Source: an uncultured Elusimicrobia bacterium
GTDB lineage: Bacteria > Elusimicrobiota > Elusimicrobia > 2-01-FULL-59-12
Length of the DNA: 64,000 nt
Assembly (NCBI GenBank): GCA_963702895.1
Contig: OY969767.1
Span: forward strand, 288,001-352,000
Direction: 5' to 3'
Shown here one piece after another: positions 8,672 through 57,928 of this stretch. The notes under the pieces were generated by a model. The model made no database searches, was not told the DNA's origin, and saw nothing but the letters and a program-made list of their open reading frames with translations. Made by a program: the position numbers and the translations under genes. The stretch's first letter is position 1. Each line of letters opens with the position of its first letter.

Positions 8672-8908
8672 CTAGGCAGCCTCTCGTAGTTTCTTCAGGC
8701 TTGTTTCAATGAGTCCCAGCTGGCAGCGCAGGGCGCCCTCTTCGAGGTCGCCCAAGTCCAGCTCGTCCATGACGCCGTTTAAGATCTCGATCTGGCGCTG
8801 GACAGCGGCGCGCACGTATTCTTTCCGATTCTCTTGTATACCTGTACATCTTTCATCCCGTTCGCGGGCTGCCCATACGAGCGCCAGCGGGGGTATTGTT
8901 GTCACCAT
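8672..8908 (-). CDS. Small hypothetical helical protein (78 aa)
   Basis: AAGGAGG RBS before ATG 8908, PHO-like boxes upstream, same strand as neighbours. Confidence 0.65.
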   Translation of the reverse strand: MVTTIPPLALVWAARERDERCTGIQENRKEYVRAAVQRQIEILNGVMDELDLGDLEEGALRCQLGLIETSLKKLREAA

Positions 8909-8987
8909 GCCAGTGACCTCCTTGCATTTATGTATTTTCATTCGTCTCATTTTAAGCGGCCTGGGTTTCAAGATCTATAGTTGCTAG

Positions 8988-9017: not shown

Positions 9018-10313
9018 CTAAGCGGCGCTGGGAGTGGATTCGAGACATATCAAATCCTTTGCTTTTTTGAAGGCATCCAGCGCTTGGAGGATGTCATCGC
9101 ACGTATGTGTGGCCATGACGCTCACCCGTATCCGTGCCATCCCCTTCTTGACTGCAGGAAAAGCAACGGGGCTCACGTAGATGCCGTAAAGATGCAGCGC
9201 CCTCGTCAATTGATAAGCCTTGAGTTCGTCGCCCACGATCACGGGGATAATGGGTGTTTCACTCTCCCCTGTATCGAACCCCATGCTCTGGAGACCTTGG
9301 CGTAATAAATGGGTGTTTTCCCATAACCGGATAAGCCACTCCGGTTCCGACTCAATCACATCCATCGCCGTAATCAAGGAGGCGCAGGTTGCGGGCGGCA
9401 GAGCGGCGCTAAAAACGAAACCACGCGCCGTGTGTTTGAGAAACGTGATGAGATCTTTGGGTCCCGCCGCAAAGCCTCCAAGTCCGCCCAGTCCTTTACT
9501 CAGAGTCCCCATGACAATATCGATCTGGCCGTGGAGGCCAAAATGTTCCGGTGTCCCGCGACCCCTTGCTCCCAGGACACCGGTGGAATGAGCCTCATCA
9601 ATCATGACGAGCGACTTGTATTTTCTCGCCAAGCGATAAATCTCCGGCAGGTTGCAGATATCCCCATCCATGCTGTAGACCCCATCCACAATGATGATCA
9701 GGTTGCCTTGGCCTGAGGCCTCACGCAGTTTCGTTTCTAAATCGGCCATGTCATTGTGGTTAAAGACACGAAAGGGCATTTTCGAAAACCGTAGCCCGTC
9801 CAGAAGGCTCGCATGAATACGCTCGTCAATGACAGCAATGTCCGTTGTCCGGTTTAAGAAAGTGGAGACCGTCGCTAGGTTGGAAACATACCCAGAGCTA
9901 TAAGCGATAGCGGCTTCTGTGCCTTTAAATTGGGCCAGGCGGGCTTCCAATTCTTCATGGATCCCAAAGGTGCCTCCCAGGAGTCGGACGGACCCGGCGC
10001 CGACGCCGAATTTTTCGATGGCTTTTATGGCGGCAGCTTTGACACGGGGGTGGTTGGTTAGACCTAAATAGTTATTCGAGCCGAACATCAGCATCTTCTG
10101 ACTGTTTACGAAAATATGCGCATCGGAGGAAGACTCCAGCTTCCGCATATAGAAGTAAAGACCTTCGGCCTTGAGACTGTCGGGGATACTGTTATAGGCG
10201 TGAACCTTATCATAAATAGGATACTGGATTGGATTCAGTGGTGGAAAGTCGGCAGGATGAATGACCTCCAGAGGTCTTTGCAGATCTGTAAGGGGCAACG
10301 TCTGTGCGTTCAA
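9018..10313 (-). CDS. PLP-dependent alpha-oxoamine synthase (SPT/BioF/Kbl family)
   Basis: FGSNNYLGL, HASLLDG, HND, DGVYSMDGD, DEAH, GTLSK (PLP lysine). TTG start with GGGAGG RBS. Confidence 0.92.
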   Translation of the reverse strand: MNAQTLPLTDLQRPLEVIHPADFPPLNPIQYPIYDKVHAYNSIPDSLKAEGLYFYMRKLESSSDAHIFVNSQKMLMFGSNNYLGLTNHPRVKAAAIKAIEKFGVGAGSVRLLGGTFGIHEELEARLAQFKGTEAAIAYSSGYVSNLATVSTFLNRTTDIAVIDERIHASLLDGLRFSKMPFRVFNHNDMADLETKLREASGQGNLIIIVDGVYSMDGDICNLPEIYRLARKYKSLVMIDEAHSTGVLGARGRGTPEHFGLHGQIDIVMGTLSKGLGGLGGFAAGPKDLITFLKHTARGFVFSAALPPATCASLITAMDVIESEPEWLIRLWENTHLLRQGLQSMGFDTGESETPIIPVIVGDELKAYQLTRALHLYGIYVSPVAFPAVKKGMARIRVSVMATHTCDDILQALDAFKKAKDLICLESTPSAA

Positions 10314-10421: not shown

Positions 10422-10450
10422 CTGCGGGGAAAGGCTTGTGCCCTCTCGTA

Positions 10451-13400
10451 CTAGGCGCTGGCCAGGAGCCCACGCCGAAGCGGTCTAATGTGTTGCTGAT
10501 CAGGCCCGGAAGGAGGGGGAAAAGACGGGGCGCTCGCTCCCAGACCGCCGCTGGGAGGTGGCTCCCGCAAACCGGATTCACCGGCGGGGCTTCTTGGGTG
10601 CAGAGTAAAGAGATCTTTCAGACTGAAACGACCGTCTAGAATGTGATCGGGATCGATCGTTGGGGGGGTGGCCCCTTCGCCCTCCGTATAGGATCCCGTG
10701 CGGATCCCGATGTCGCCCAAAAAATAATCAAGGTTAACCATTTCCCGTTTAAGGCGCTCGAGTTCATAGAACTTTCGCGACAGATCATTTTGGGAGGCTT
10801 TGATCCGGTTAAGTTCCTCTCTTTTCGCCTCCAGGTCCGATTCCAACCGTTTGAGGGGCAGCCCCCGGCGCAGGAGCTTCCAAAGACGGCCGAGAAGCCA
10901 GGGACCCTCGGGGGGCGCTGTCACAAAGTCCAACCCCGTCCTTGTCAGTTCCCGCCATCCGTTCCCGAGCTCCTGCTCCAGCGCGCGGCGGCGCTGCATC
11001 AAAGGCTGAAATTCCTCACCCAGGGCTTGCTGCTTGGCCTTGATAAGGGCTTCCACCGGCGGCTGGCTCAATTCACGGATCCCCACAAGGGCCGCCATGG
11101 GATTGAGGAATTCGCTGGGGACATGCACCCGCGTCCCGGCGGCCTGCCGAAGAAAAAGCCAATCCCCAGGGGTGGCCGAGGAGACGATGAAGGCGTCTCG
11201 ATCGCGCATGATTTTGGAATGGGGATTCATATCCTCCAGAGCCATAAAACGGACTCGATGGGCAAACCTCCTTGGAAGACGCCCCGGGATATTGTCTTTC
11301 AAGAAGGAGAAAAACTTTGGATGGGTTTTGCCCGCATCCACCATGATCACGCGGCCGCGCGTCAATTGCAGCCAGAACCCGATTTCCCGGGTAGCCTGCC
11401 GGAAATTGACGGTGTTTTCACAGGTCAGATACACATCGCGGTCGCCGAGAATCGGTTCCCCCGGGAACCAGCTGATCAACTCCGAAAGCAAGTCATACCC
11501 TTTCTCATAGGCCATCTTCAGCTGCAGAACGCTGGTGGTTGGCTGTCCCTGCTCATTCCGGTTATATCGATCCCTTAAGGTCACCTCCGGCGTATGAGGT
11601 CTCCACTCCCGAAGGTCTTTCAGCAAGGCGGCAGAAGCCTCGACCCACTCCTTGGTCCCGCGCAGGGTCAAGGCATAGCCGACGGTCCTGACAATATTGT
11701 GATCACCGGCCAACGCCTCAGGGTTTTTTTTGTTTCCCGTCTTGACATCTGTTGTGCTGAGTAAATCGGGGAGCTTTTCGAGGAACTCCGTCCAGGTCGC
11801 CTGTTCATAAGGACCGACCGCGAGTTCCCAGTACCGGATGATTTGCTTACGCCAGAAAGGATCGTGCAATCCTTCAAAGACATAATGCAAGAGATCGAAA
11901 ACCTCGCCCGCCCTTTCCTGCGCGCGGAATCCACCGAAAGCGTCCGGGTCCAAGCTGGGAAGCCGTTCCTGCAGCGCATCGAGGGCCTGCCGAACAAGGC
12001 CCGCGTTCTCCATTCCATTGATGTTCGCGATCATTTCCGCGTTGCCGGAACGCAGAAGTGCGATCAAGGTATGGGAAGGAAAGTCCAGCATAAGGGATTT
12101 GGCTTCTTCCGCCCTGGCCCATTCCAGGTGCTCATACCGCTGCTCCTTGGTCAGGGCCTCTACGTCAATATTCTTTTTCTCGCGGAGCATTTTGAAATGC
12201 TCTTCGTCTGCCGCGAGGGGCCTCGGCGTGCTGGGATAAATGGGAAAGTGGAGTGACCGGCTTCGGCGAAGTTGAACGCGAAAGGCGTTAAGGAACGTTC
12301 GCGTCTTATCGGATAACGGATAAACCCCGTTGGGGGCCGCTTTCGCCGCGTCCGCGTCGGCGGCGACCAGTTGGCGGTGAGCGGCGTCTGCAATCTGACG
12401 GGCAAAACCGAAATAGGCTTCCATAAACGGCTCGTACTCCAGCTTGTTGTTAGGATAAAGCACGGTTGATTCATAAATTCTTTTGAGCTCGGCCATCGCG
12501 TTTCGTCCTGTTTGGGCTTCAAACAGATTCTTGCTGTTGCCTCCCAAAAGAGTTTGCAGGAAAAACCGATGATAAAGATTCCACCAGGTCGTGGCGATCA
12601 GTTTGCCCCAACCTTCCGCGATGGCGATGACCAGCCACCCCGCGATCAGAAACCCGAAAGCGAACGCGGCGGCGCCGGCCAGCGGGTTGCTGAGGAAAGG
12701 CGCCATCATCGGGTGCGTCAAGAAAACGCGGAGCGCCTCCTCGCGCGTATCCGCAGGAGAACGCAGCCACAAGCCCACCATACCGCCGAGGATGACCAGG
12801 ACCCAGAAAAAGGTGCGCGTCTTGGACCCCGCCGCCGCTTCCTGGGTCGGCATCTGGTAATGCTCGTCCAGAAGGAAGGCTTGCCATCGGCTCACGCCGT
12901 TTCGCTGGAAGCGCCGGTAAAGTCTCATTCTTTCAGTCAATTTGATCTTTTTCTTCCAGAGAGAAGTCATTTTCTGTACGGGGGTGAGATAGGACCGTTG
13001 CTGGCCCTGATGCCAATAGACCTCGTATTCCAAGGTGGTGGTCTTGAGAGCACGCGCGAACTGCTCCAATTGATTCGCACTCTGCCGGGTGGACGGTGCG
13101 GGCTGCGAAACGACTGCCAGCCCCGAGGGCTGAGGCACCTCCTCGAGATCGCTCGGAAGCGGCATCTGGAACGTTCCCGAGACTGAGCCATCCCCGGCGG
13201 GCAGGGGGGACGAGTAGTCTGCCTTTCGGAAAATGGCGCTCGCCGCCAGTCCCGAAACCGCCAATGCGACGAACGGGGCGCTGGGATAAATCAATAAGAC
13301 AAAGAGAAATGGAATGCTCAGGCGCAGCACCCAGTCGCTGAAGAGTGGACCGGCCCGCCGAACCTCCGGATTGATCAGGATGCGCCATTGGTTCGACCGA

Positions 13401-16400
13401 CGTTCCCACCAGGTGATCCCTCGCTGGCCGGAACGAATGCTCAGCCACGGAACAGCCCATCGCCCCTGTCGCCACGCCGTCAGTCCGTGTCCCAGTTCAT
13501 GAACCCCTACGCTTAAGGCGTAGCCTGCGGCCAAAGACCCGGCGTGCCACCCCCCGCCGGCGGCATAGCTGGCCAGGGACAACCCCAGTGTGACCGCGGC
13601 GGCCACCGTCAACCGGCCTCCCTTGAGCTGCGATCCGGCGAGAAGACCTTCGGAGGGAGTCGGCGCTCCGATCAGGCGTCCGATCAGACGATAGAGAGAC
13701 GATCGGGCGCCCGAACGGCCGAGGTCGATCCGCACCAGCGAACGCGTCATCGGCAGACCCGGTGGAAACAGCTTTTGCGCCTCGGCCAGAGGCAGGGTCC
13801 GTTCCGCCTGAAATTCATAGAGATCGTAGAGCCGATCCAGGCTCTTGCTGCCCACAATCTCGAAATCCACCGGTACCGGGAGCGCCGCGGACCGCACGCC
13901 GACTTTATCTTTGAGGGATAGGTTCTGAGCCTGTGCGTAAAAGGAAACGCGCACGCGGACGTTGGGCCCGAGCGGAACGAGCGCGTCTTCACCCGGGTAA
14001 TTCGGATGCCGCCGGGCAAGGGGGTAATGGTTGTAGCGGAACGACTCAGCGGGCTGCACCCGGCTTCCCTTCGCCGATCCTCCCGATTGCTCGACGTTTT
14101 GGATGCTGCGCGAAAGTTCCGCTTTCCGGGTTTCCAGCCGTCCCAGCTGCGCGTTCAATCTTTCCAGGAATTCCACCCCCCATTCACTCTGCGGATAGGC
14201 TTGCCGGTGCTGCTCCACGCTGGCCTTGAGCGTCCGCAGGCTCACTTCCAAGCGGGCGGTCGCTTCATACTGCTCCTGGAGGGGCCGGAGAAGGGCGGAA
14301 TACGGCGGGTGCGTAGGGTTTCCCGGAAGGATCGTGGCATAGCCGAGGGTCACATTTTGCGGGGTTTCGATCAGGCGGTTACCCTTGTCGTCGTGGAGAC
14401 CCCTGAATTGATAGGCCCCGGATCCCAAATCATCGTTGGGAACCCGAACAATCAGCTCGACGGACAGGATGGCATCTCGTCCCATGGCGGGGTTCGTCAG
14501 CTCGGGCCCACTGTAGTTTTCCCGTCTCGTTTCCTGCACGAAATTGGGGTCACCCGGCCGCACGAATTCGACGATATCCTTCAACGGGATAGGAAGTTCA
14601 TTTTGATCAGGTCCCACAATATGCAGAAAGGTCGTTTCCTTGGATCGCTGCCAGGCCTGCTCCAAGGCGAACGCGTCCAGGGGGGTCAGCCTCAACTGCA
14701 GATGCCGATGATTGGGGAATTCTTGAGTAAACAAAGCGACGGGGACGCCGGCTTTCAGGTCGGTCCCCTCCGTGAGGACTCCCGCTTCCAGAAGAATATG
14801 GATTGTTGAAACGGCCCCCTTCCCGCCAACCTTTTGATTCGCGTCCAAAAGCTCGGGATTGAACGGGATGTTGCGCTGCTCCCGTTTCAGGAGCAAAGCG
14901 TTCAAATGCAGGCCGCGCTCGCGAAGGGTGTGCCGCAGACTCTGTTCCTCGAAGGATTCCGCCGGTTGCCCGGTCTCGGCCGCCGTCTGGGCGGACAGGG
15001 CCCTGGCATTAAGATAGCGTTCGTGGAGGCCTTCGATTTCGTTCAGGACGAGGTGGATCGCGTGATCCACGGACGACTCCGGATTGGCGCGAACACGGAT
15101 GAGAGCGTCCGCGTGCGGATCGGCCGCGGAGCGAAGGCGCCCCGAGGCCACGACGTCGGTTCCGTCCAGATCACGCAAGTTCCGGCTGACTTGTTCCAAA
15201 CGACGGTGAAGCGAAGCGTCCAACGGGTCGTAGGCGACAAACAGACGCGGCCCGCCCTTCTGGAAAGTTTCGGAACGGTGGAGCTTGACCTGTGTGACGA
15301 CGCCCGCTTCCGGGGGCGCCCAGGTCACAGGAATTCGCACCGGCTGGACACCGACTCCGTTATTCACGGACGCCATCTGTCGCAAAGTCTGTGGTTCGGC
15401 GCGACCAGGCGGCTCCGGGGAGGTCGCCGCGGCCTCCTGACCCCGAAAGGGGAGCAGGAAGGAGAGCGCGGCAAGTCCCGCGGCGCCCAGGAACCACCGC
15501 CGGTCACGGCTCACGGGGGTCCGGCCGAGGAATTCGATGGATCCCCATAACATGACAAAGAGAGGCACCAGAGACAGCCAAGGCATGGGAGAACACACCC
15601 AACTGACCACGCTGGCGACCCCCAGGCCGTAGAGCCTCCGCCTGTTTCCAACACCCAGGGTCGGAACGAGGCTTATGAAAGAGGCGGCGCCCAACACCAT
15701 AGCCGCGCCTTGAAGCCATCGAGGATGCGCCGCCAGAATTGCCACATAACTCATCCACGGAATAACGTTCAGGGTGCTGCGAATCAGCACAGCAGCTGTT
15801 AGAGGAATGAGAATCCATGGTAAGAGGTTCTTGCCGTTCTTGGAGTTCCCGTTGGGATGGCTTGCAGGCGCTGCTTCACGTGGGATTTTGCCTGATTTCC
15901 AATAATGCCGGATCGCTAAAACCGCCACGACCAGCAAGAAAATCCCGCCGGCCACGAGGGCCATATGCCAGGCGTCCTGGAAGATCCAGCCGCTCATGTG
16001 ATGGATGGCTTCCGTCCAGTTGGAAAAGATCGAGCCGGATCCCGTCGTGTCGAAACCTGCATCCGACGGCTGCGGTTGCATGGAAACAGCCGGAGGCGGA
16101 GAAACATTGCTTACGGGGAGCTGGGTCATGGGAGGCGACACAGAGGGGGCCTCGGCAAACGAGGGGGGCACGCCCGCTTGAGAAACCGGGGTTGCCGCGG
16201 CAGGCTGGGGCACGGCCGCGGGAGCGGACGGTCCGGCAGAGAAGCTGGGATCAAGGCCGCGGGCGATCTCGGGGTCGTAAGACCCCACATGCAGCGCGCC
16301 CGGTTGAATAAGGTCGGGATTCGAAATCCCATTTTCTTGAGTGATGGACGCTACGAGATCGTTGATTTCCCGTCCCGAGAGCGCTTTCCCAGGATGCTGC

Positions 16401-18751
16401 TTCTTGAGAATATCGACCGCGATACCCCACAGCGTATTCGCCGAATGGCCTGTTTGATAGTGGCCCACCGTGACATCGACCGCGACCTTCTGGGCGATGT
16501 CCGCCAGGGGGCCTCCGTTCATGACTTGGCCTGCGACCTTGGCCGCCGCCGCGACGGGGTGAGCGGAAAATGTGTGCGCGGAAGCCGCGGAGGGGAAAAT
16601 CATGCCCAGGACCGTCATCAGGGTCGGGGGCAGAATCCAACGGATGGTGCGTGCGGCAGATTTTTTTACGGGTGTCGGAGCCTGCGGCCCCGGCGGGTTC
16701 ACCGGGTTGGGTGTCGAAGGGGAGGAAGGATCGATCCGCGCGATGACCGCCATGTAATGCTCCGCGAGCGCGGCCTGCAATTCGTCCTGGTACTCCATCG
16801 TATAAAGCTCCATCAATCGGGCCGCGGCGTGAGCCGCTTCGAGATGCCGCATATATTCTTGCCTTAATTGCTGGAGCCTCAGCCAAAGCAGGTCGCGATC
16901 GGCGGCCACCCTCCGGGTATCAGCCTGAACCGCCGCAAGCCATTGCCGTTCCGCCAGTGCGATCCGATTGCGTGTGGCGGCCAGCTGCACCCAGGCATTT
17001 TGCCGTTGCGCTCGGGCTAACAGAAACTCTCCCCGCACCCGGGCTCGCTCCTCTTGGATCTGATCGTCGATCACCCTCTGCCGAAGGGAGGCCTCGACGA
17101 TCCATTCGTCCAGGCTGCGCCGGGTGGACCTGTCGGGCACCTGGACATCGTAATTCAACAAAGACGCAATGAAAGGGAGGCTGCCCAGCGACAGGTGAAC
17201 ACCGGCTCGCCATGTGGGCTCTTTCTTCAACTCCAGAAGCCGTTTGGTAACGACTTCGAGCATTTCCTTCTGCAGCTCCAGCCGTCGCTCCAGCGGGGAC
17301 TTCCCCAGTGGCCTATCGGCGGGTACAGGGGAGAAGATTCGGTCGAGATCGGCCTCCGTCGGGGGGATCCCGTCGGTTTCGGAACCCGTCGTGCCCGGTG
17401 GAAATCCGTCCAAAGCGGGGGGATGGTAGGCCGCCTCGGCCGCCTGGATCGCCTGATGGGAAGGCAAAGTGGACAGATGGGGGACATTGAAGGGAGCACC
17501 TTCCTCTCTCAGAACCCCCGGGACGAGGCCTGATCGCTCCAGCAGGCTGGCGTCCATCCTCCAGGAGACCCTTTCAGGATGGAGCGGGCTGGCGGCCGCC
17601 CCTGCCAGCGCTTGCTCGGAATCCGCCACTGCCCCGAGCCAGCGCACACGGAGCCGCTCCAGAGCGCCGTGCGCGGATGCCAGATCGGCGGCAGATTTTT
17701 CGGCATCCCGTGCCAATTCCAAGAGCCGGGCCGGGCTTCTCCCTTCCTGAGAGACGGATCCCTTTTCGCGATTTTCGACGAATCGGCTGATCCCGGCCTC
17801 GTAGCCCATTTCTCGCAGGCGTTCGGCCTCGATGCGGTAAGCCAGCGCGGACCGCAGGGCGTCCGCATGCGCCTCTTGAACGGTCTGGGCCAGATCGGCA
17901 TAGGCTTTGTAGATCTCAAAAGCTTGCGCATGTTCGCGCAGGTATTCGGCTTCGACCGTGTTCTTGGACACCCACTGCACCCCGGAGAGGATTTTCATGG
18001 CGCCATCGGCCAATCGGCGCCAGAAGCTCCTGCCGCCGCCCTCGTCCTCGGCGGTGCTGCCCAGAATCTGTGTCTGTCTTTTCGGAGACGCCACAGAAAG
18101 ACCGGGGAAAAGGATCGCCTGGCCGATCGTGGATTGCGGCCCGACGAAAGCCACGCCGGGCGCGTGCAGCCGGTCCAGGCCCATCTGGAAGTATTTATCT
18201 TCGCCAAGCTGTATCCCGAGCAAGGCTTGCCACGCCGCGCGATGCTCATAAAACTTTGCGCTCACTCTCGGATTGGCATGGATCACCTGCTGGAGGAGTT
18301 GGGAAAGCTTCCGGGCTTGAGCCATATCCGGAGCGAGATGCCAGGCTCCTTTCCATTGCTCCTCGGTCAGGAGAATGTTTTCCCGATGGATGAACGGCCC
18401 CTCCGGAACGGGCAGGCGAGCGACCGGAGGTCGTTTGGATGGAGCGCTTTGCGGCTCGGCGAAGGGCGCGGCGACAAAGATACTTCCCAGGAGAACCAAC
18501 GTGGCAAGAGTCCTGGAGTTGCGCAGGGAGTCTGGCCGAAACACACTGGCAGCAAGGCGGGAGACCAGTGCCTGACGGTCAAACGCTTGGCTGGCGAAGT
18601 CGAGCTGAGCGGGCGCCCGGCCCTGGCGGAAGTTGACGGCAACGGCTGCCCAGATCGGATCCGTGCTGAGGAGGCAAAACGAGAGCAATAAGGATACTGC
18701 TTTTCGTGAGAGGCAACGGGACTTTGCAACGGTTCTCATCATAGTGAACAT
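10451..18751 (-). CDS. Giant 2766-aa multidomain envelope protein (TolC-like, LysM, TM, adaptor/MFP-like, HExxH TM, unknown C-terminal domain)
   Basis: 8.3-kb uninterrupted ORF with signal-like N-terminus. LysM TLWGIA..NGISNPDLIQPG, VHELGH..AGP, several TM clusters. Other domain calls are by pattern only. Confidence 0.8.
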   Translation of the reverse strand: MFTMMRTVAKSRCLSRKAVSLLLSFCLLSTDPIWAAVAVNFRQGRAPAQLDFASQAFDRQALVSRLAASVFRPDSLRNSRTLATLVLLGSIFVAAPFAEPQSAPSKRPPVARLPVPEGPFIHRENILLTEEQWKGAWHLAPDMAQARKLSQLLQQVIHANPRVSAKFYEHRAAWQALLGIQLGEDKYFQMGLDRLHAPGVAFVGPQSTIGQAILFPGLSVASPKRQTQILGSTAEDEGGGRSFWRRLADGAMKILSGVQWVSKNTVEAEYLREHAQAFEIYKAYADLAQTVQEAHADALRSALAYRIEAERLREMGYEAGISRFVENREKGSVSQEGRSPARLLELARDAEKSAADLASAHGALERLRVRWLGAVADSEQALAGAAASPLHPERVSWRMDASLLERSGLVPGVLREEGAPFNVPHLSTLPSHQAIQAAEAAYHPPALDGFPPGTTGSETDGIPPTEADLDRIFSPVPADRPLGKSPLERRLELQKEMLEVVTKRLLELKKEPTWRAGVHLSLGSLPFIASLLNYDVQVPDRSTRRSLDEWIVEASLRQRVIDDQIQEERARVRGEFLLARAQRQNAWVQLAATRNRIALAERQWLAAVQADTRRVAADRDLLWLRLQQLRQEYMRHLEAAHAAARLMELYTMEYQDELQAALAEHYMAVIARIDPSSPSTPNPVNPPGPQAPTPVKKSAARTIRWILPPTLMTVLGMIFPSAASAHTFSAHPVAAAAKVAGQVMNGGPLADIAQKVAVDVTVGHYQTGHSANTLWGIAVDILKKQHPGKALSGREINDLVASITQENGISNPDLIQPGALHVGSYDPEIARGLDPSFSAGPSAPAAVPQPAAATPVSQAGVPPSFAEAPSVSPPMTQLPVSNVSPPPAVSMQPQPSDAGFDTTGSGSIFSNWTEAIHHMSGWIFQDAWHMALVAGGIFLLVVAVLAIRHYWKSGKIPREAAPASHPNGNSKNGKNLLPWILIPLTAAVLIRSTLNVIPWMSYVAILAAHPRWLQGAAMVLGAASFISLVPTLGVGNRRRLYGLGVASVVSWVCSPMPWLSLVPLFVMLWGSIEFLGRTPVSRDRRWFLGAAGLAALSFLLPFRGQEAAATSPEPPGRAEPQTLRQMASVNNGVGVQPVRIPVTWAPPEAGVVTQVKLHRSETFQKGGPRLFVAYDPLDASLHRRLEQVSRNLRDLDGTDVVASGRLRSAADPHADALIRVRANPESSVDHAIHLVLNEIEGLHERYLNARALSAQTAAETGQPAESFEEQSLRHTLRERGLHLNALLLKREQRNIPFNPELLDANQKVGGKGAVSTIHILLEAGVLTEGTDLKAGVPVALFTQEFPNHRHLQLRLTPLDAFALEQAWQRSKETTFLHIVGPDQNELPIPLKDIVEFVRPGDPNFVQETRRENYSGPELTNPAMGRDAILSVELIVRVPNDDLGSGAYQFRGLHDDKGNRLIETPQNVTLGYATILPGNPTHPPYSALLRPLQEQYEATARLEVSLRTLKASVEQHRQAYPQSEWGVEFLERLNAQLGRLETRKAELSRSIQNVEQSGGSAKGSRVQPAESFRYNHYPLARRHPNYPGEDALVPLGPNVRVRVSFYAQAQNLSLKDKVGVRSAALPVPVDFEIVGSKSLDRLYDLYEFQAERTLPLAEAQKLFPPGLPMTRSLVRIDLGRSGARSSLYRLIGRLIGAPTPSEGLLAGSQLKGGRLTVAAAVTLGLSLASYAAGGGWHAGSLAAGYALSVGVHELGHGLTAWRQGRWAVPWLSIRSGQRGITWWERRSNQWRILINPEVRRAGPLFSDWVLRLSIPFLFVLLIYPSAPFVALAVSGLAASAIFRKADYSSPLPAGDGSVSGTFQMPLPSDLEEVPQPSGLAVVSQPAPSTRQSANQLEQFARALKTTTLEYEVYWHQGQQRSYLTPVQKMTSLWKKKIKLTERMRLYRRFQRNGVSRWQAFLLDEHYQMPTQEAAAGSKTRTFFWVLVILGGMVGLWLRSPADTREEALRVFLTHPMMAPFLSNPLAGAAAFAFGFLIAGWLVIAIAEGWGKLIATTWWNLYHRFFLQTLLGGNSKNLFEAQTGRNAMAELKRIYESTVLYPNNKLEYEPFMEAYFGFARQIADAAHRQLVAADADAAKAAPNGVYPLSDKTRTFLNAFRVQLRRSRSLHFPIYPSTPRPLAADEEHFKMLREKKNIDVEALTKEQRYEHLEWARAEEAKSLMLDFPSHTLIALLRSGNAEMIANINGMENAGLVRQALDALQERLPSLDPDAFGGFRAQERAGEVFDLLHYVFEGLHDPFWRKQIIRYWELAVGPYEQATWTEFLEKLPDLLSTTDVKTGNKKNPEALAGDHNIVRTVGYALTLRGTKEWVEASAALLKDLREWRPHTPEVTLRDRYNRNEQGQPTTSVLQLKMAYEKGYDLLSELISWFPGEPILGDRDVYLTCENTVNFRQATREIGFWLQLTRGRVIMVDAGKTHPKFFSFLKDNIPGRLPRRFAHRVRFMALEDMNPHSKIMRDRDAFIVSSATPGDWLFLRQAAGTRVHVPSEFLNPMAALVGIRELSQPPVEALIKAKQQALGEEFQPLMQRRRALEQELGNGWRELTRTGLDFVTAPPEGPWLLGRLWKLLRRGLPLKRLESDLEAKREELNRIKASQNDLSRKFYELERLKREMVNLDYFLGDIGIRTGSYTEGEGATPPTIDPDHILDGRFSLKDLFTLHPRSPAGESGLREPPPSGGLGASAPSFPPPSGPDQQHIRPLRRGLLASA

Positions 18752-18893: not shown

Positions 18894-19169
18894 TCACGCC
18901 GCTGTCAACTCGCGCGCGGCCTGGTCAGTCTCTTTGGCGCAGACAGGAACACAAGACTGGCTATGGAGTGCGGGTGAAAATAATTTTACGCCGCGGAGTT
19001 CATTGTGCAGCCACAGAAAAGGCGTACGACTCCTTGCCGGGGATCGTCCCCACGCCACGATTTTCCAAGAAAGCTCATCCAGGATGACCTCATCTCCCAG
19101 GCGAATCCTGACCCCTTCCAAATACCACAGTTCGTTAAACTCCAGCAAAGCTAACCTTTGTCTCTTCAT
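18894..19169 (-). CDS. Small hypothetical protein (91 aa) preceding the giant gene
   Basis: GGGGG RBS before ATG, lies between a PHO-like box and the giant gene, ends in AA like its neighbours. Confidence 0.45.
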   Translation of the reverse strand: MKRQRLALLEFNELWYLEGVRIRLGDEVILDELSWKIVAWGRSPARSRTPFLWLHNELRGVKLFSPALHSQSCVPVCAKETDQAARELTAA

Positions 19170-19301
19170 CTTGACCCCCGATTTTTGGATTACTTCCGTC
19201 GTCGTTCGGCTCAGAAACCAGCGAGGACGTTGCTGAAAATAAGCGGAAGCGAAATACGGATGATTCTAGTTGTTCGGCTATGTCCGGCCTATGGCAAGCG
19301 T

Positions 19302-19329
19302 GTAAATTCGAAGTGACAGCGAATTGACA
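19302..19329 (-). promoter_or_regulatory. PHO-box-like direct repeat upstream of the 91-aa ORF/giant gene
   Basis: TGTCAA-TTCGC-TGTCAC-TTCGA-ATTTAC, 11-bp period. Confidence 0.7.
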
Positions 19330-19403
19330 TGTTGAGAGCGCAAAGAGGAGCGACGGGATTGGGGGTGTGTGAGCTTGCCAAAATAAGGACTATTGTATTT
19401 GTC

Positions 19404-19463: not shown

Positions 19464-19940
19464 TTATTTCATATCGATATCGTCCTCGTGCGCCTGGCTA
19501 CTCGGGGAGATGTTCCCATCATGCTTCTTGCCGCCGTGGGAACGCTTCCCATAGCGCATGGGCTTGCGAAGTATTTCTTTACATCCTGCGGAGATCTTGT
19601 CGTCATAAGCTCTTAAACAGGCAATTTGGCGGCCTTCGCCAGGGGTGACATTCGCGCAATAGCGCTTGATGTCCGCCTGGCAGGCGGCCTGGAGTTCCTT
19701 CCCCCTTTCTTCAAGCCGCTGTTGTCCTTTCGCCATCGTGTGCTTGCAAGGTTCGGAAAGCTCAGGCTCATGAGCTTTCATACAGTCATGGATCGCCCCA
19801 GCGCCTGGCGTGACGTCTCCACAAAGCTTCTTCACATCCTCACGGCAAGCCCCTCCCTCCTCCTCGGCAAAAGCCGGTCGGATCGTCATGACGAGGCCAA
19901 CCGTCAGGCTCATGAGGAACGCCATCATCCTTTTCTTCAT
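19464..19940 (-). CDS. Secreted cysteine-rich repeat protein (GLG1/Cys_rich_FGFR-like, 2 repeats)
   Basis: Signal peptide and two ACxxDxKxxCxxVTPGxGxxxxCxxA..SxxC repeats. CAGGAGG RBS. Confidence 0.8.
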   Translation of the reverse strand: MKKRMMAFLMSLTVGLVMTIRPAFAEEEGGACREDVKKLCGDVTPGAGAIHDCMKAHEPELSEPCKHTMAKGQQRLEERGKELQAACQADIKRYCANVTPGEGRQIACLRAYDDKISAGCKEILRKPMRYGKRSHGGKKHDGNISPSSQAHEDDIDMK

Positions 19941-22452: not shown

Positions 22453-22479
22453 GAATTCTGGGAGCGCTCTGCTCAAGGA

Positions 22480-47521: not shown

Positions 47522-48014
47522 GGCAGGCCTCCTCGAGCGCCGCGGTGAGTTCTTCGAGCCGGCGCTGGAGGGGTTCAGAGAGCGGAGCGCCTAAGGTAAG
47601 ATCGTGGGGCTGGATTCCCAGCATATACATCTTCGCCGAGGTGCGCTCCCGCAGGTGCTCGGTGAAGACGCGGGGCGAAAGATCATGCGTCGAAAGCCCG
47701 CCCGCGGCGATCTCGTCGGCACCCATGAGTGCACAATCCCCAGCCTTCCCGCCCAGGTGCATCGCGTCGACGAGGACGAGGGTGTCGGGCTTTTCCCGCG
47801 CGATCCGGCCGATGAAGTTTTCCGGCGTGGTCCCGGCGTCCACGCAAACGGCGGAAATCCGGCCGTTCAATCGCTCCACCAGGAGCGAGCCAAAGCCGTC
47901 ATCCCCCCGCAGGCGGTTTCCCAGGCCGACGAGCACGCATGTCCCGGAAGCGAGCAGCGTCCGGAGAGCTTCGAGAGGAAGGCCGTTCCCTGTCTGAGGG
48001 GGTCCAGGGTCCAT
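47514..48014 (-). CDS. hycI: Hydrogenase maturation endopeptidase (HycI-like)
   Basis: GLGNRLRGDDGFG, AGTTPEN, VDA, STH, GIQP. Confidence 0.9.
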   Translation of the reverse strand: MDPGPPQTGNGLPLEALRTLLASGTCVLVGLGNRLRGDDGFGSLLVERLNGRISAVCVDAGTTPENFIGRIAREKPDTLVLVDAMHLGGKAGDCALMGADEIAAGGLSTHDLSPRVFTEHLRERTSAKMYMLGIQPHDLTLGAPLSEPLQRRLEELTAALEEACRA

Positions 48015-48025
48015 GGTTGGCCGCG

Positions 48026-48631
48026 TCAGGACTGCGTGGTGGCGTAGCGGCAGGGCGCGCAGAGGATCTTCATGCGATCGGCGCGGTTCTGGTCGTTGGA
48101 GGCGGAGACTAAATTTGAATCGATGAGTCCCAGCCTCTGCAGGCTGCTTTGGTAGAGCGTGGGACTGGAGAAGGCGAGCTCGCCCTCCTTTTCGGCGATC
48201 CATTGGAGATGGTCCTTGCAGGCGAAGGCTTCCCCGCACCGCTCGCAGTGCTGCAGCTCTTTCTCGATGGTTTCAAACGATTCCGTGCGGCGGTCGAAGA
48301 ACGAAAGCTCCCAGTCGGTCGTGGTGTGGATGCCCTGGTGGTCGGTAATGCAGGCCGCAACGCACTGGCCGCAGAAGATGCAGGTGTCGGTGTAGTGGAT
48401 CATCCGGCGCACGGAACGGTCCTCCCCCAGCCGGTCCTCGTGGGCGATCGCGCCCACCGGGCAGACCTCCTCGCAGGCGAGGCACCCGACGCACTTGGTT
48501 TCGTCAAAACGCGGCTGGCCCCGGGAGTTTGGGTGCGGCTGGAAGGGCTCCTCTGGAAACGGCGACGTGTAGGGGCCCTTCACGAGCGCCCTCACCGCCT
48601 CCTTCAATTCTCTGAGCTTGGGCCACTTCAT
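48026..48631 (-). CDS. Hydrogenase 4Fe-4S subunit (NuoI/HycF-like)
   Basis: GPYT..FP, RG.P, CVGCLACEEVCP, CIFCGQCVAAC. Confidence 0.88.
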   Translation of the reverse strand: MKWPKLRELKEAVRALVKGPYTSPFPEEPFQPHPNSRGQPRFDETKCVGCLACEEVCPVGAIAHEDRLGEDRSVRRMIHYTDTCIFCGQCVAACITDHQGIHTTTDWELSFFDRRTESFETIEKELQHCERCGEAFACKDHLQWIAEKEGELAFSSPTLYQSSLQRLGLIDSNLVSASNDQNRADRMKILCAPCRYATTQS

Positions 48632-48957
48632 TTTCGCGGATGATCCTCCTCGTAGTCGTCTTTGACCGTGCCCTTCCAGAGCGGGATCCCCGCCCGATGC
48701 GCGCTGCGGGCGATCGCGTGGGCCGCGACCGGGTTGGTGAGGACGATAAAGAGCATGCAGAGCAGCGCCTTCAAGCCGCCCGCCGGCCCCACCACGAGAA
48801 ACGTCCCGAAAAGGATGCTGCAGGTGCCCAGCGTCACGCACTTGGTCGCCGTCTGGAGGCGCAGGTAGAGGTCCGGCATGCGGATGAGGCCAATGCAGCC
48901 GAACAGGTCGAACGCCAGGCCCACGCCGACCAGGATAAATCCTAAGGTCTCACTCAT
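48628..48957 (-). CDS. Mrp/Mnh antiporter subunit G-like
   Basis: GLIRMPDLYLRLQTATKCVTLG, NPVAAHAIAR. Confidence 0.9.
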   Translation of the reverse strand: MSETLGFILVGVGLAFDLFGCIGLIRMPDLYLRLQTATKCVTLGTCSILFGTFLVVGPAGGLKALLCMLFIVLTNPVAAHAIARSAHRAGIPLWKGTVKDDYEEDHPRK

Positions 48958-49321
48958 CGAAGTCCTTTCCTTCCAGGTACTTGCACAGGACCAGCACCGT
49001 GATGAAGCTCTGCAGGGCCCAGGCGATCCCCACGTCAATGTACCAGGTGCGTCCGGTGGAGATGGTCAGGATCGCGCAAAGCCCCGTGATCATCACGCCC
49101 AGAAGATCGACGGCCACCAGGCGGTCCGCCCCCGTCGGGCCCCGCAGAATCCGGAAGAGGCACAGGAAGCAGGCCAGGAGGAGAATGTAGAGCGCTCGCC
49201 CAACGAAGGGAAGGTGCGGCAGCTCTTGGTAGAACAGGAACGGGAACGGCCGGAGAAGAATCAGGGCAATAATGCTCCCCAGCACGAGAGCCCCCAACAG
49301 CCAGCGCCAGAACCTCATCAT
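48950..49321 (-). CDS. Mrp/Mnh antiporter subunit F-like
   Basis: RILRGPTGADRLVAVD, YIDV, KYLEG. Confidence 0.88.
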   Translation of the reverse strand: MMRFWRWLLGALVLGSIIALILLRPFPFLFYQELPHLPFVGRALYILLLACFLCLFRILRGPTGADRLVAVDLLGVMITGLCAILTISTGRTWYIDVGIAWALQSFITVLVLCKYLEGKDFDE

Positions 49322-49821
49322 TCGAAGATCCTCTTGAGCATCCGCTCGAAACGGTGCACCACCCGCTGGATCGCCTGCCCGCCGTCCGCCTCGGAGATGT
49401 ACATGCAATGGACATAAATCAGGCCGCGGTCGGGATCGATATCCATGGTCGTGGTCCCCGGCATGAGGGACACGGAGTTGGCGAGGATCGTCAACCCCAT
49501 GTCCGACTTGAGCTCCGACTTCATTCGCAAGATCGCCGGACGGATCGGCAGTTTCGGATGCAGGACCCGGTAAGCGACATCGAGATTGGCCTTGAAATGC
49601 TCCCACCAGAAATAGGGGAAATAGACGAAGCAGAACATCATGAGCCGCGAGGGCTGCGTGAGGATCCGCGTGGGCTCGCCCACCGGGAGGAATTCCGTCA
49701 TCACCGCCACGAGGAGCGCGACCGAGACGCCCAGGATCAGGGCCTGCACGTTCGGGACCCAGTTCATCAGGATCCAGATGATGTAGCAGCTGATGAAGAG
49801 GATGACGCGACGGCTCGACAT
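49318..49821 (-). CDS. Mrp/Mnh antiporter subunit E-like
   Basis: ANLDVAYRVLHP.LPIRP, LANSVSLMPGT, IYVH. Confidence 0.9.
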   Translation of the reverse strand: MSSRRVILFISCYIIWILMNWVPNVQALILGVSVALLVAVMTEFLPVGEPTRILTQPSRLMMFCFVYFPYFWWEHFKANLDVAYRVLHPKLPIRPAILRMKSELKSDMGLTILANSVSLMPGTTTMDIDPDRGLIYVHCMYISEADGGQAIQRVVHRFERMLKRIFE

Positions 49822-49824
49822 GGG

Positions 49825-51321
49825 TTAGAGACCTCCCAGCATGGCGGCATAGGCCGTTCCATGCAGCAGGACGGCGCTCGCCTGCTCGAGAAACGCTTCC
49901 TTGAGGCCCGGCATCAGGAACAGGCCTCCCACGGCGCAGAGTGTGGCCAGGATCAGCGTCGCGCAGCGCATCGCCAGCGGAACCTCCTGGACGGAGCGCA
50001 GACTTTCCGGCAGCGCGCCGAAATAAACGCATTTCATCGCCCGCGCGAGGTAAGCAAGCGTCACCACGCCCGCCGCGACGGCCACCGCGGCATAACCGAA
50101 GTGGCCCGCCTCAACGGCGGCGATGATGACCAAGAGCTTGCTCCAGAACCCGAGGAAGGGGGGAATCCCGGCGATGGACATCGCCCCAATGAGGCCGGTG
50201 GCCGCGGTGACCGGCATCGGCTGTGCAAGGCCGCCCAGCTTGCGCAGGTCCCGCGTTCCCGTGGCGTAATCGACGGCGCCAGCGTTCAGGAAGAGCAGCG
50301 CCTTTCCCAGCGAATGGTTCAGGAGGTGCAGGACGCCGCCCAGAACGCCGAGCGGCGTCCCCAGCGCGATGCCGAAAACGATGTAGCCGATCTGGCTGAG
50401 CGACGAAAAGGCCAGAAGCCGCTTGTAGTCCCACTGGCCGATCGCGGAGAACGCGCCCACCACCATCGACAGGGCCCCCAGGAACAAGAGCGCCGATCGC
50501 ACCCCCGGAGAAACGCCCAGGACGCAGTAGAGCACCCGGAAGAGCGCGTAGATCCCGAGGACTTTCAGGATCAGGCCGGAGAGCATCGCCGAAATAGGCG
50601 CGGGGGCGGAAGGGTGCGCGTCCGGCAACCAGGCGTGAAAGGGCGCCACCGCCGCTTTTAGCCCGAACCCCGCGATGAACAGGACGGTGACGAGCGTCAC
50701 GACAGGCCCGCCGCCTTTGACTGCCAGGACCGCCGCGACGTCCGCCATGTTGAGCGTGGACACGTGGGCGTAGAGGAAGGCGATGCCCAGGAGAATGAAC
50801 ATTGCTCCGAGGGTGTTCGTCACGCCGTATTTGAACGCCGCCTCGATCTCCTGCCGCTCTGTGCCAAAAGCCACGAGCGCGCAGGCGGCCAGGGACGCGG
50901 CTTCCAGGAAGACGAAGATGTTGAAGATGTCGCCCGTGACCAGGACCCCGTTGATCCCGGCAAGAATCACCAGAAACAGGCTGTAAAACCGCCAGGGCGA
51001 GGTGAAGCGCCGCATATAGGCCGTCGCGTACAGGGCGACCACGGCCGAGACCAGATGGACGATCACCAGCATAAAGGCGGTGAGGCCGTCTTCAATCAGG
51101 AGGATCCCCGCGGGCGGTTTCCAGCCGCCGGGAATGTGATAAAGGATGCCCTGGACCCGGGTCGCCTGGAGGGAAAAGAGCGACAGCGCGAGAAGCCCGG
51201 CCGGCATAAGAACCCCGAGGACTTCCGGGAAATTCCGGACGCGCCGCCCCATCATCGCGATGAGGAAGGCGCCGGTGAGCGGCACGGCCACAAAGAGCGG
51301 GATGAGGTTCGAATCCATCAT
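49825..51321 (-). CDS. Mrp/Mnh subunit D-like proton-translocating subunit
   Basis: GDIFNIFVFLE, KAAVAPFHAWLPDAHPSAP, KRLLAFSS, GIPPFLGFWSK. Confidence 0.92.
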   Translation of the reverse strand: MMDSNLIPLFVAVPLTGAFLIAMMGRRVRNFPEVLGVLMPAGLLALSLFSLQATRVQGILYHIPGGWKPPAGILLIEDGLTAFMLVIVHLVSAVVALYATAYMRRFTSPWRFYSLFLVILAGINGVLVTGDIFNIFVFLEAASLAACALVAFGTERQEIEAAFKYGVTNTLGAMFILLGIAFLYAHVSTLNMADVAAVLAVKGGGPVVTLVTVLFIAGFGLKAAVAPFHAWLPDAHPSAPAPISAMLSGLILKVLGIYALFRVLYCVLGVSPGVRSALLFLGALSMVVGAFSAIGQWDYKRLLAFSSLSQIGYIVFGIALGTPLGVLGGVLHLLNHSLGKALLFLNAGAVDYATGTRDLRKLGGLAQPMPVTAATGLIGAMSIAGIPPFLGFWSKLLVIIAAVEAGHFGYAAVAVAAGVVTLAYLARAMKCVYFGALPESLRSVQEVPLAMRCATLILATLCAVGGLFLMPGLKEAFLEQASAVLLHGTAYAAMLGGL

Positions 51322-51665
51322 CCGCGCAAGTCCTTGATCTGCGTGATATCGAAGGTGCCGTACTTCTCGTAGAGGCGGATGGCCAGCGCCACAAGCAGGA
51401 GCGTCGTCGCCATGCCGATCACGATCGTGGTCAGCACCATCGCCTGCGGCAGCGGGTCGACGAGCGGCACCGGCGACGGCGAGGCCTGGATGGCGCGGTC
51501 CAGAACGGGCGCCCGGCCGTTCATCCGGTAGCCCACCACGATGAACAGGAGGTTCGCGGCGTATTCGCAGATGATGAGGCCCGTGATGATCTTAATGACG
51601 TTGCGCTTGCGCAGCGTGCCGTAGAGGCCAAGGCAGAAAAGGACCAGGCAGAGCAGGTAAATCAC
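51318..51665 (-). CDS. Mrp/Mnh subunit C-like
   Basis: NVIKIITGL, VDPLPQAMVLTTIVIG, YGT.DI. Confidence 0.92.
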   Translation of the reverse strand: MIYLLCLVLFCLGLYGTLRKRNVIKIITGLIICEYAANLLFIVVGYRMNGRAPVLDRAIQASPSPVPLVDPLPQAMVLTTIVIGMATTLLLVALAIRLYEKYGTFDITQIKDLRG

Positions 51666-52120
51666 TTCGATCCTCCCTTGGGGTTCGGCTTGAACAGGAC
51701 CAGCGCCATCACGATCCCGAAGAGGCTCCCCGTGACCAAGAGGTCGATGGCCAGGTTGCAGAACGGCACGATTCCCCCGCTCCAGAACTCGTAGGGCTGC
51801 CCTTTGCCCAGGAAATTGAAAAAGAAATAGCCTTTCTCCATCAGCCCGCCGACCGCGATGCCCACCAGCAACAGGCCTCCGAACGAAGCCATGATCCGGC
51901 AGGCGCCCTGCGTCAGGATCGCGTAGACCACATCCTTCCCGAAGGCCACGAGTAGCAGGACCATGGCCAGCGCCATGATCACGCCGGCGGCGAAGCCGTC
52001 CCCATGCGTGATCTGCCCATGGAAGACGATATAAAACGCGTACAGGAGCATCAGGCGCGAAACCGGCCGGGCGACGGTGCTCACGATGCGCGAGAGGCTG
52101 GAAGTCGGTCGCGGGCTCAT
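51662..52120 (-). CDS. Mrp/Mnh subunit B-like
   Basis: HGQITHGDGFAAG (variant of HG..PGGGFQGG), SGG.VP..N.AI. Confidence 0.85.
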   Translation of the reverse strand: MSPRPTSSLSRIVSTVARPVSRLMLLYAFYIVFHGQITHGDGFAAGVIMALAMVLLLVAFGKDVVYAILTQGACRIMASFGGLLLVGIAVGGLMEKGYFFFNFLGKGQPYEFWSGGIVPFCNLAIDLLVTGSLFGIVMALVLFKPNPKGGSK

Positions 52121-52665
52121 TCGTCCGCCTCCGGAGCCTGCTCGCCGGGCCGCGCTTTCCCTTCGCGCCGCAGGATGGCCAGGGCCCCCAGGAACGCCGC
52201 GAAGAGCGCCGTGGCCTCGCCCATGCGGTCGTAGGCGCGGTAGTTCAGGGATACCGCCGCGACGAGATTGGTCGCGCCGGTCTGCGCGAGCCCCTCCTGC
52301 AGATACGTCGAAGCGACGCGCAGCGCCGGGTAGCCGAAGGCCGGCAGTTCCGCGATCGCCTTCCAGGCCGCGCCCAGGAACGCGATCACGAAAAACACCG
52401 CGATGCCGGTGTTCAAGACCCACCGTCCTGAGGTGGAAAAGGGAAGGTCTTTCCGGATGGTCGCCCGGATGAGGATGATCAGGCACAGGATTTCGATGAT
52501 CAACTGCGTGATGGCGACATCCGGCGCCTTCAGGATGAGAAAGGCCACCGAGAGCCCGAGGCCCACGGCGCTCACCGAGACCGCGCTGGAGAGCAAATCC
52601 TCCATCTCGATCGCCGCGAACGCCGTCACGATCATGAATCCCATCAGAAGATACAGTTCAATCAT
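52117..52665 (-). CDS. MbhD/MbhE-like membrane subunit (MrpA C-terminal related)
   Basis: DLLSSA, APDVAITQ, GATNLVAAV.LNYRAYD..GEA. Confidence 0.85.
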   Translation of the reverse strand: MIELYLLMGFMIVTAFAAIEMEDLLSSAVSVSAVGLGLSVAFLILKAPDVAITQLIIEILCLIILIRATIRKDLPFSTSGRWVLNTGIAVFFVIAFLGAAWKAIAELPAFGYPALRVASTYLQEGLAQTGATNLVAAVSLNYRAYDRMGEATALFAAFLGALAILRREGKARPGEQAPEADE

Positions 52666-52668
52666 CGT

Positions 52669-54321: not shown

Positions 54322-55505
54322 ACTGGCAGCCCCGCGGAGCGGCGGAGTTCTTCGGTCTTGGCCTGGCAGAGTTTCACGAGGTCGTCGCCGTTCATCAACT
54401 TCTGACCGGCCGTGTTGCGCACAGCCAGGCGCTCGGTGCAGCAATAGCAGGGGTCGATCGCAGCCAGGATAATGGCGGCATCCGAGATCGTCGCTCCCAG
54501 CATGGTCGCCTTATAAGTCGGCAGGTTCATAAAGGTCGGCGCGCGGACCTTGTGGCGGACGGGGCGGTTCGTCCCGTCGCTGCGCACGTAATGGAACGTC
54601 TCTCCCCGCGGCGCCTCATGCTGGCCGATCCCTTCGCCCACCGGCAGCGTCTTGAACTTGGCGTCGATCTCGCCGGGGGGCAGGTGCGTCAGGAAGTATT
54701 TCACCATCTTGACGGACTCAAAGGTCTCCAGGACGCGCATCAAGAGCTTCTCAAAAACGTCGCCCTTTTCGCCGACGATCATCTGCCAGTCCACCTGGTC
54801 ATAGGCCGCGTAGGGGCAGTTTTTCCGGATGTCCTTGGCGACGCCCGAGGCCCGCGCGGTGGGGCCGACGGCGCTGAAGTCGATCGCCGCCTGCTTGGAG
54901 AGGATGCCGACGCCTTTTGTGCGCGCCTGCAGCACCGGATCGTCCATCACGGCCCGGCGCAGCATCTCCAGGGTCGGCATAATGGAATCGAACTTCTTCA
55001 AAACGACCGGGATATCCTCCGCCTTGATGTCGCGCCGCACGCCCCCGGGACGAAACATCCCGTAGTTGTTGCGGTTGCCGGAGAGGATCTCCATCACGTC
55101 CAGAATTTCTTCCCGCAGCTTCCAGGCCCACATGAAAACGGTGTTGTAGCCAAGGAAATGTCCGGCGAGCCCCAGCCACAAGAGATGCGAATGCACGCGC
55201 TCGCTCTCGGCGATGATCACGCGGATGGCCTTGGCGCGCTCGGGGACCTCGATCCCGGCGATGTCCTCGACCGCCTCGACGAAGGCGAACGGGTGGCTGG
55301 TGGAGCAGATCCCGCAAATGCGCTCCACGACGAAGGTGGACTGGTCGTAGGTCTTCATCTCCGAAAGCTTCTCGATGCCGCGGTGGTTGTAGCCGACGTG
55401 CACGTCGATGCCGGTGACCTTTTCACCGTCCACCGTCAGGCTGAAGAACTCCGGTTCTTCCTGGAGCGGATGGTAAGGGCCGATGGGAATAATCGTGCGG
55501 CTCAT
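54318..55505 (-). CDS. Group 4 [NiFe]-hydrogenase large subunit
   Basis: GYNHRGIEK, L1 RICGIC, EAPRGE, L2 DPCYCCTER plus C-terminal extension. Confidence 0.93.
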   Translation of the reverse strand: MSRTIIPIGPYHPLQEEPEFFSLTVDGEKVTGIDVHVGYNHRGIEKLSEMKTYDQSTFVVERICGICSTSHPFAFVEAVEDIAGIEVPERAKAIRVIIAESERVHSHLLWLGLAGHFLGYNTVFMWAWKLREEILDVMEILSGNRNNYGMFRPGGVRRDIKAEDIPVVLKKFDSIMPTLEMLRRAVMDDPVLQARTKGVGILSKQAAIDFSAVGPTARASGVAKDIRKNCPYAAYDQVDWQMIVGEKGDVFEKLLMRVLETFESVKMVKYFLTHLPPGEIDAKFKTLPVGEGIGQHEAPRGETFHYVRSDGTNRPVRHKVRAPTFMNLPTYKATMLGATISDAAIILAAIDPCYCCTERLAVRNTAGQKLMNGDDLVKLCQAKTEELRRSAGLPV

Positions 55506-56427: not shown

Positions 56428-56428
56428 T

Positions 56429-57924: not shown

Positions 57925-57928
57925 ACGC

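Follow-up and report, generated by a model that had tools for sequence, protein, structure and literature searches.

Our analysis of a 64,000-nucleotide stretch of an uncultured Elusimicrobia genome (the window) confirmed that a very long open reading frame is a real, conserved single gene, in which a TolC-like channel, a LysM-like module, two adaptor units and membrane anchors are joined in one chain (Table 1). We consider it about an even bet (probability 0.5) that a trimer of this protein builds a wall-anchored trans-envelope duct that is matured by the signal peptidases of the host; the gene would then encode a duct of the tripartite type in a single chain. An earlier note on this DNA had proposed a single-gene export machine spanning the envelope. 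The part of this proposal that stands is that a single conserved chain unites the TolC and adaptor folds, whereas an energising transporter could not be recognised.

Table 1. Features of the giant gene and its upstream region (window positions; res, residues of the protein)
Feature	Position	Strand	Basis
Giant gene, P0001, 2,766 aa	10451..18751	-	ORF call and homologues
Leader shared by the family, res 1-62: hydrophobic stretch up to DP, then F..QAL-type motif	18566..18751	-	Leader profile, alignment
Putative internal signal peptide before channel domain, res 77-98	18458..18523	-	Sequence pattern
Predicted TolC/OEP-type outer-membrane-factor (OMF) protomer, res 146-659, both helical repeats	16775..18316	-	AF2 and fold searches
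Amphipathic beta-hairpin candidate, repeat 2, res 513-539	17135..17215	-	Alternation conserved in 9 aligned sequences; no strands in model
Signal-peptide-like segment before LysM, res 696-725, ASA followed by H	16577..16666	-	Sequence pattern
LysM-like domain with insertion, res 763-823	16283..16465	-	Pfam, profile match
Inner-membrane helix cluster, res 929-1104; last helix is the adaptor signal-anchor	15440..15967	-	Hydropathy, flanking charge
Adaptor unit 1, res 1128-1461: beta-barrel, split lipoyl, helical hairpin	14369..15370	-	AF2, Foldseek, VIA
Adaptor unit 2, res 1464-1680: hairpin and beta-barrel, reduced lipoyl	13712..14362	-	VIA, DSSP
Optional M50-like cassette, res 1714-1846	13214..13612	-	Pfam, alignments
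Conserved segment, probably cytoplasmic, and two membrane helices, res 1890-2050	12602..13084	-	Alignments; side from charge
Predicted cytoplasmic C-terminal region, res 2060-2720, with a helical and an alpha/beta domain and a coiled coil	10592..12574	-	No family match; weak GT-B C-domain lead in hhalign
Basic non-polar tail ending LLASA	10451..10483	-	Alignment of C-termini
Pho-box-like array GTCA-n7-GTCA-n7-TTTAC, 579 bp upstream of giant gene	19291..19330	-	Matrix scan

The host genome (2.72 Mb) is assembled as one contig and 98% complete, and the reading frame runs from 18751 to 10451 on the minus strand without internal stops. An identical protein is also encoded on a 24-kb contig from another assembly source, possibly derived from the same reads. 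The motifs by which the modules had originally been picked out are all present, within about 70 bases of their first assignments: LLQQVIHANP is at 18298, SPLERRLE at 17299, APPEAGVVTQV at 15319, LKAGVPV at 14758, VHELGH at 13504 and AGP at 13354, and the LysM-like NTLWG..NPDLIQPG lies at 16438-16321. A full HMMER search with residues 121-690 recovered 15 proteins at E<=0.001, the giant protein itself (P0001) among them; their records are from NCBI, JGI, ENA and Logan. Five homologues, belonging to three source collections, are full-length and colinear (P0003, P0004 and P0006 with about 30-37% identity, P0012 and P0013 with about 22%). P0007 and P0010 correspond to these throughout, save for a reduced C-terminal part; P0009, a fragment, has no LysM, P0005 stops soon after the channel domain, and five further matches are small fragments. 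Scans for the genomic loci of the homologues had no hit. The survey of homologues bears out the proposed architecture: the order of OMF, membrane and adaptor regions is constant in all nine long sequences, at pairwise identities of 18-44%, and the second adaptor barrel can be aligned in eight of them, P0009 being cut short. An assembly chimera or a chance read-through is effectively refuted, because the five full-length homologues keep the module order; moreover, GC3 is even along the gene (0.66-0.72). Word-index protein searches matched only P0001 itself or P0003. The gene is rare: the channel domain was without a match when 400 further genomes from the phylum were searched, as were the C-terminal part and a four-sequence profile in 11 genomes of the order, which indicates that the gene is accessory. 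With a stricter filter, the only match among 60 relatives was to LysM, in one of them.

Curated Pfam or NCBIfam cut-offs were reached by no module. OEP and HlyD gave no match at all, M50 (E 0.001-0.03, 14-19 bits) and LysM (E 0.19) matched below the Pfam cut-offs, and PDB sequence and profile searches with the giant protein found nothing significant. The fold assignments therefore rest on structure prediction. For residues 121-690, an AF2 model based on 15 sequences had a pLDDT of 71 and a pTM of 0.72. Among the Foldseek matches listed for this model, which extend to rank 43, all are OMFs. The six best matches in the VIA search were VceC, TolC, CusC, an OprM-type chain, CmeC and MtrE; OMF entries reached Z 12-14.9 with 328-350 residues aligned at an rmsd of 4.6-5.9, compared with Z 9.7 for the best non-OMF. 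The ESM Atlas also pointed to OEP, with a low recognition score, and profile tests of the OEP and adaptor parts against the ordinary members encoded in the genome were weak (E about 0.01). In the model, residues 146-659 form a duplicated helical alpha-barrel protomer of the TolC/OEP class. AF2, Foldseek and VIA agree on this fold, and the two TolC-pattern helical repeats described earlier are both present, although together they make up one protomer and not two units.

The adaptor region (residues 1121-1700) was modelled from nine sequences with a pLDDT of 75, and among the top 50 Foldseek matches listed all are adaptors, with E down to 7e-7. Unit 1 (model positions 8-341) could be aligned with 212-228 residues of MacA, MexA and AcrA (Z 5-7.4), and unit 2 (344-560) with ZneB, Spr0693, AcrA and MexA over 181-194 residues (Z 7.3-9.1; in VIA, ZneB reached Z 9.1 with 186 residues aligned at an rmsd of 5.8, Spr0693 Z 8.5 and AcrA Z 7.5). 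Since these Z values are middling and a wide search independent of Foldseek gave only generic hairpins among the matches listed, Foldseek carries most of the weight here. Unit 1 has the hairpin, the split lipoyl and the beta-barrel; a profile alignment recovers its lipoyl half as well (E 0.007), and the tip of its hairpin retains the G..S..E pattern of ordinary adaptors. In unit 2, hairpin and barrel align, the lipoyl is reduced according to DSSP, the hairpin tip has no conserved Gly, and the profile match of the barrel alone is not significant. The split lipoyl-like motifs around a helical hairpin were thus rightly taken for an adaptor, and the second hairpin reported with them exists as well but is part of a second adaptor unit that had been missed. 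Generic coiled coils, which the earlier note had named as the outcome that would undo its assignments, were not obtained: the fragments model as TolC and adaptor folds. Structure prediction shows the three folds and their order in the chain, and the models support one OMF protomer and two adaptor units in a single conserved protein.

This composition recalls the tripartite pumps. In the literature, AcrAB-TolC is described as a 3:6 assembly of OMF and adaptors with tip-to-tip docking (PMC5404916, PMC4446572, PMC8277102), and both a two-adaptor pump, TriABC, and an adaptor that occurs naturally as a fused dimer, DSY0927, are known (PMC4446572). Like these pumps, the giant protein combines OMF and adaptor folds in a 1:2 proportion with an N-terminal membrane anchor on the adaptor. 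Its sequence is 5-18% identical to those of the solved structures that the fold searches listed. In contrast to them, it has the OMF and both adaptors in one chain, includes a LysM module and has no recognisable ABC, RND or MFS transporter. Two non-identical adaptor units per OMF protomer are shared with TriABC-OpmH and DSY0927 as presented there, but in those systems OMF and transporter each have a gene of their own. The giant protein therefore resembles the duct half of a tripartite system without being a member, as no energised transporter is recognisable. Among the papers listed in literature searches, where coverage was thin for subscription papers, there was neither a natural OMF-adaptor fusion nor a bacterial polyprotein with internal signals.

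In the duct that we propose, the internal signal would export the channel domain and signal peptidase I, or II in the homologue with a lipobox, would free its N-terminus, after which the domain would trimerise in the outer membrane. Both adaptors of each chain, on their own inner-membrane anchor, would dock tip to tip on the channel, and LysM would pin the assembly to peptidoglycan. Three copies of the chain would supply three TolC-like protomers and six adaptor hairpins, so that the chain itself would fix the 3:6 ratio. The base of the duct may be formed by the last helices of the chain together with its cytoplasmic domain, or by a transporter encoded elsewhere. In each of the eight sequences that include their N-terminus, the segment ahead of the channel domain is signal-like by its pattern; it has a lipobox in P0013, a near-lipobox in P0012 and Pro at -3 in P0001, and would represent a Sec or lipoprotein signal that is internal instead of N-terminal. 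The host genome has three SPase I genes, one SPase II gene and BamA-family genes, as well as ClpX and Prc. The SPase I paralogues are located at G000 C1 1446884, 1271500 and 2592834, and the genome is rich in internal signal-like segments. Tat export, for which RRWFL at residue 1084 was considered, was rejected, as the 98% complete genome has no TatC.

The second signal-like segment, before LysM, is found in all eight LysM-bearing members, with Ala at -1 in seven and Pro at -6 in six. Its hydropathy (KD 1.69-2.11) overlaps that of segments within the OMF (1.23-1.95), and it has an inside-type charge although it follows an exported domain without a stop-transfer helix. Hydropathy and charge revealed no helix that would return the chain to the cytoplasm between the channel and this signal, which conflicts with a simple one-pass membrane insertion. 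The LysM domain itself has the right motifs, with a profile match to a LysM chain (E 0.21) that is likewise below cut-off, and is placed in the periplasm because the helix following it has an outside-to-inside charge in all eight members. The subsequent helix cluster comprises about six helices in P0001 and two in P0007 and P0010. It appears about equally likely that the channel stays tethered through LysM and a 90-residue Pro/Ala linker or that it is released at the second signal: P0009, where a single weak segment (KD 1.54) joins the OMF to an outside-to-inside helix, fits a tether, and the conserved cleavage-site pattern fits cutting.

These successive inside-type signals without an intervening stop-transfer also fit a different fate of the chain, in which an unknown host protease cuts upstream of each internal signal and channel, LysM piece and adaptors act separately or with ordinary pumps; with a strictly alternating topology, the OMF-like domain would even be left in the cytoplasm. 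The signal, LysM and membrane helix behave as a removable cassette, absent from P0009 and present in an otherwise unrelated long protein of genome G028, and the family-wide leader and ssrA-like tail, with ClpX and Prc in the genome, are in line with such cutting. We nevertheless consider it quite unlikely: the linker ahead of the LysM signal has no conserved cut motif, this signal is so marginally hydrophobic that it could pass into the periplasm, P0009 links its OMF to the next helix through that one weak segment, and the fixed 1:2 ratio suggests joint function.

Both beta-hairpin regions of the channel domain had a pLDDT below 50 and no strands in the AF2 model, the region in repeat 1 has an insertion of about 60 residues between short strand candidates, and a two-copy complex prediction of the domain scored 0.00 against a mark of 0.42, with the fold uncertain. 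A non-conducting strut or sensor with a degenerate barrel, that is, a rigid periplasmic stalk which ties the inner membrane, wall and outer membrane together or relays a signal to the cytoplasmic domain, would account for the missing strands and the atypical first hairpin, for the LysM domain and for the absence of a recognisable motor, in a genome that already has seven ordinary OEP genes. However, the strand candidates of repeat 2 are strictly amphipathic across nine divergent sequences, and the strands of trimeric barrels are often disordered when a monomer is modelled. We thus regard a strut or sensor as unlikely, and an open membrane barrel, as judged from the aligned sequences, as plausible.

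The earlier note had also suggested a self-processed polyprotein, on account of an M50 metallopeptidase module. The HExxH motif does lie in a membrane helix and is followed by a GP motif (HELGH at residues 1751-1755, AGP at 1800, candidate third ligand D1845), as expected for Peptidase M50, but the Pfam match of 19 bits is below the cut-off of 27.2. In M50 proteases the third-ligand Asp lies in an NxxPxxxxDG motif; the Asp is retained in all three cassettes, whereas the NxxP part is absent. Only P0001, P0012 and P0013 among the eight long members have the cassette, P0003, P0004, P0006, P0007 and P0010 having one plain helix at its position, and self-processing is therefore not a core property. 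Similar cassettes occur in unrelated long proteins of this genome and its relatives, which makes them look like swappable cargo. One 3,012-aa family member (G000 C1 788797-797835, plus strand) has two M50-like HExxH cassettes in tandem. Modules without an ABC transporter that combine M50, HlyD and OEP have been published: in Kamneva et al. 2015 (PMC4452313), a secondary module consists of SecA_DEAD, Peptidase_M50/HlyD, HlyD and OEP. The giant protein shares with it several adaptors, OEP, a weak M50 domain and the lack of an ABC transporter, but that module is an operon instead of one gene, and M50 is optional in the giant's family. This precedent and the HExxH, GP and downstream Asp in all three cassette-bearing members argue for an active intramembrane protease with the polyprotein or its cargo leader as substrate, a reading which we consider very improbable given the missing cassettes and NxxP and the weak Pfam match. 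The cassette may be an active protease, and it is dispensable for the system.

Six members conserve about 800 residues at the C-terminus, and two others do so in part. These residues had no family match in Pfam, NCBIfam and protein searches, and residues 2050-2730 gave no usable match in the ESM Atlas. At the sensitivity used, SecA_DEAD, which is part of the published module, was rejected for the alpha/beta domain (score 18.6, within 30 shuffles), and so were a nucleotidyltransferase and GT-A. In hhalign, where four families were compared, the GT-B C-domain scored 22.3 and so exceeded every one of 150 column shuffles (top 21.8). Since the reversed control was nearly as high (20.7) and four families had been tried, this colinear resemblance without the catalytic glutamates is a weak lead only. 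Pfam, NCBIfam, conserved P-loops and helix count revealed no ABC, RND or MFS transporter in the chain, and the only transporter among the flanking genes scanned is the Pst importer; a transporter partner encoded in trans is possible. A self-contained secretion machine, in which a homotrimer forms the path from cytoplasm to surface without such a motor, is fed or gated by the cytoplasmic domain (possibly a degenerate, nucleotide-sugar-binding GT-B half) and releases its channel at the internal signal peptides, is at best a tentative reading.

The giant protein also belongs to a genome-wide family with a common leader and an AA-type tail, which had been overlooked. Among ORFs of at least 1,400 aa, 17 of 33 end in [ASTN]A, compared with 41 of 649 ORFs of 400-800 aa; 21 genes with the common leader and tail were chosen by eye, and a leader profile derived from the homologues found four of them, all long or mid-sized ORFs other than the giant, at E<=6e-4 among 9,029. 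The giant has both the shared N-terminal leader and the non-polar tail, and the last two residues are AA or SA in each of the eight members whose C-terminus is complete. Its tail resembles the tmRNA tag of the genome, which ends LAA, and such a tail may act as a degron. Very long multi-domain proteins with signal and membrane segments are known in Omnitrophota and Elusimicrobiota, and their cleavage was left open there (10.1101/2023.11.21.568195; 10.64898/2026.06.07.730766). The giant is like those proteins in its bead-on-a-string modules, many membrane helices and open cleavage question, but is much shorter and carries a transport duct as cargo; 'TolC' appears in neither main text, the supplements, which may list such a fusion, aside.

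The gene is flanked by phoB/phoR-like genes, a porin, pst genes and phoU. The Pho-box-like array upstream of it precedes a 91-aa ORF (18894-19169) that lies between array and giant. In a first matrix built from three Pho-box-like sites, whose top match was an untrained pstS site, the giant's site ranked 44-59 among 5.45 million positions. With a four-site matrix it scored 15.1 bits, which was reached by nine of 1,782 upstream windows, training genes included, while the other 20 hand-picked leader/AA-tail genes scored at most 8.4 bits. A sigma-70 promoter scan found no sites. The giant's box lies 134 bp after a Cys-rich gene, and the porin's box in G007 lies 126 bp after the same gene. This gene (19464-19940, minus strand, between phoR and the giant) encodes a secreted repeat protein (PF00839) and follows phoR in G007 as well. 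Among the pho loci of seven relatives, three join phoR to the porin without a giant and two contigs are uninformative. The locus of G004 has three other leader/AA-tail genes and the same aminotransferase, with two weak boxes and one phosphoesterase domain, and that of G010 another leader/AA-tail gene without a box. The simplest reading is that the giant was inserted behind a pre-existing Pho promoter. Induction by phosphate starvation, as had been suggested, receives moderate support from the site and is somewhat more likely than not, for this genome alone.

Several other features were noted. The leader/AA-tail genes in the relatives (L101 9516-19001 and L107 3-8369 in G004; L105 1439-6379 in G010) have unrelated cargo (GNAT, metallophosphoesterase, PRTase; GHMP kinase, aldose epimerase, NTP transferase). 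GTCA(T/C) half-sites with 11-bp spacing occur at 22453, 9016 and 2546 (minus strand), before phoB, the porin-pst operon and a second pstS, and those before the porin are conserved in relatives. A PLP enzyme resembling BioF, Kbl and serine palmitoyltransferase, all models below cut-off, is encoded at 9018-10313 (minus strand) behind its own strong Pho-box-like array at 10422, and lies beside the porin in G004 (71% identity); one might speculate that it makes a phosphorus-free lipid under starvation. The small ORFs at 8672-8971 and 18894-19169 (minus strand), which had no match in Pfam, are each located directly behind a Pho-box-like site and end in AA, and weak homologues of the former precede the porin in G005 and G001. 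The matrix scan also picked up arrays of 11-bp TATTCA(T/C)-type repeats upstream of two genes (G000 C1 431845-431962 and 1249337-1249444, minus strand). Further away in the window (48000-59800, minus strand), translations judged by eye indicate a membrane-bound hydrogenase or Mrp-like operon with sulfite-reductase-like subunits.

Given the Pho-type promoter, the proposed duct would most likely export or display something that is needed under phosphate limitation. Channels and inner-membrane-anchored adaptors are separate proteins because they reach different membranes by different routes. A conserved fusion of the two would mean either that a channel can assemble despite its link to the inner membrane or that such polyproteins are cut by bacteria at internal signals. 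With 2,766 residues and known folds, the protein offers a small-scale way to ask whether giant proteins in these lineages undergo processing, and it may be an example of a duct that needs no standard motor.
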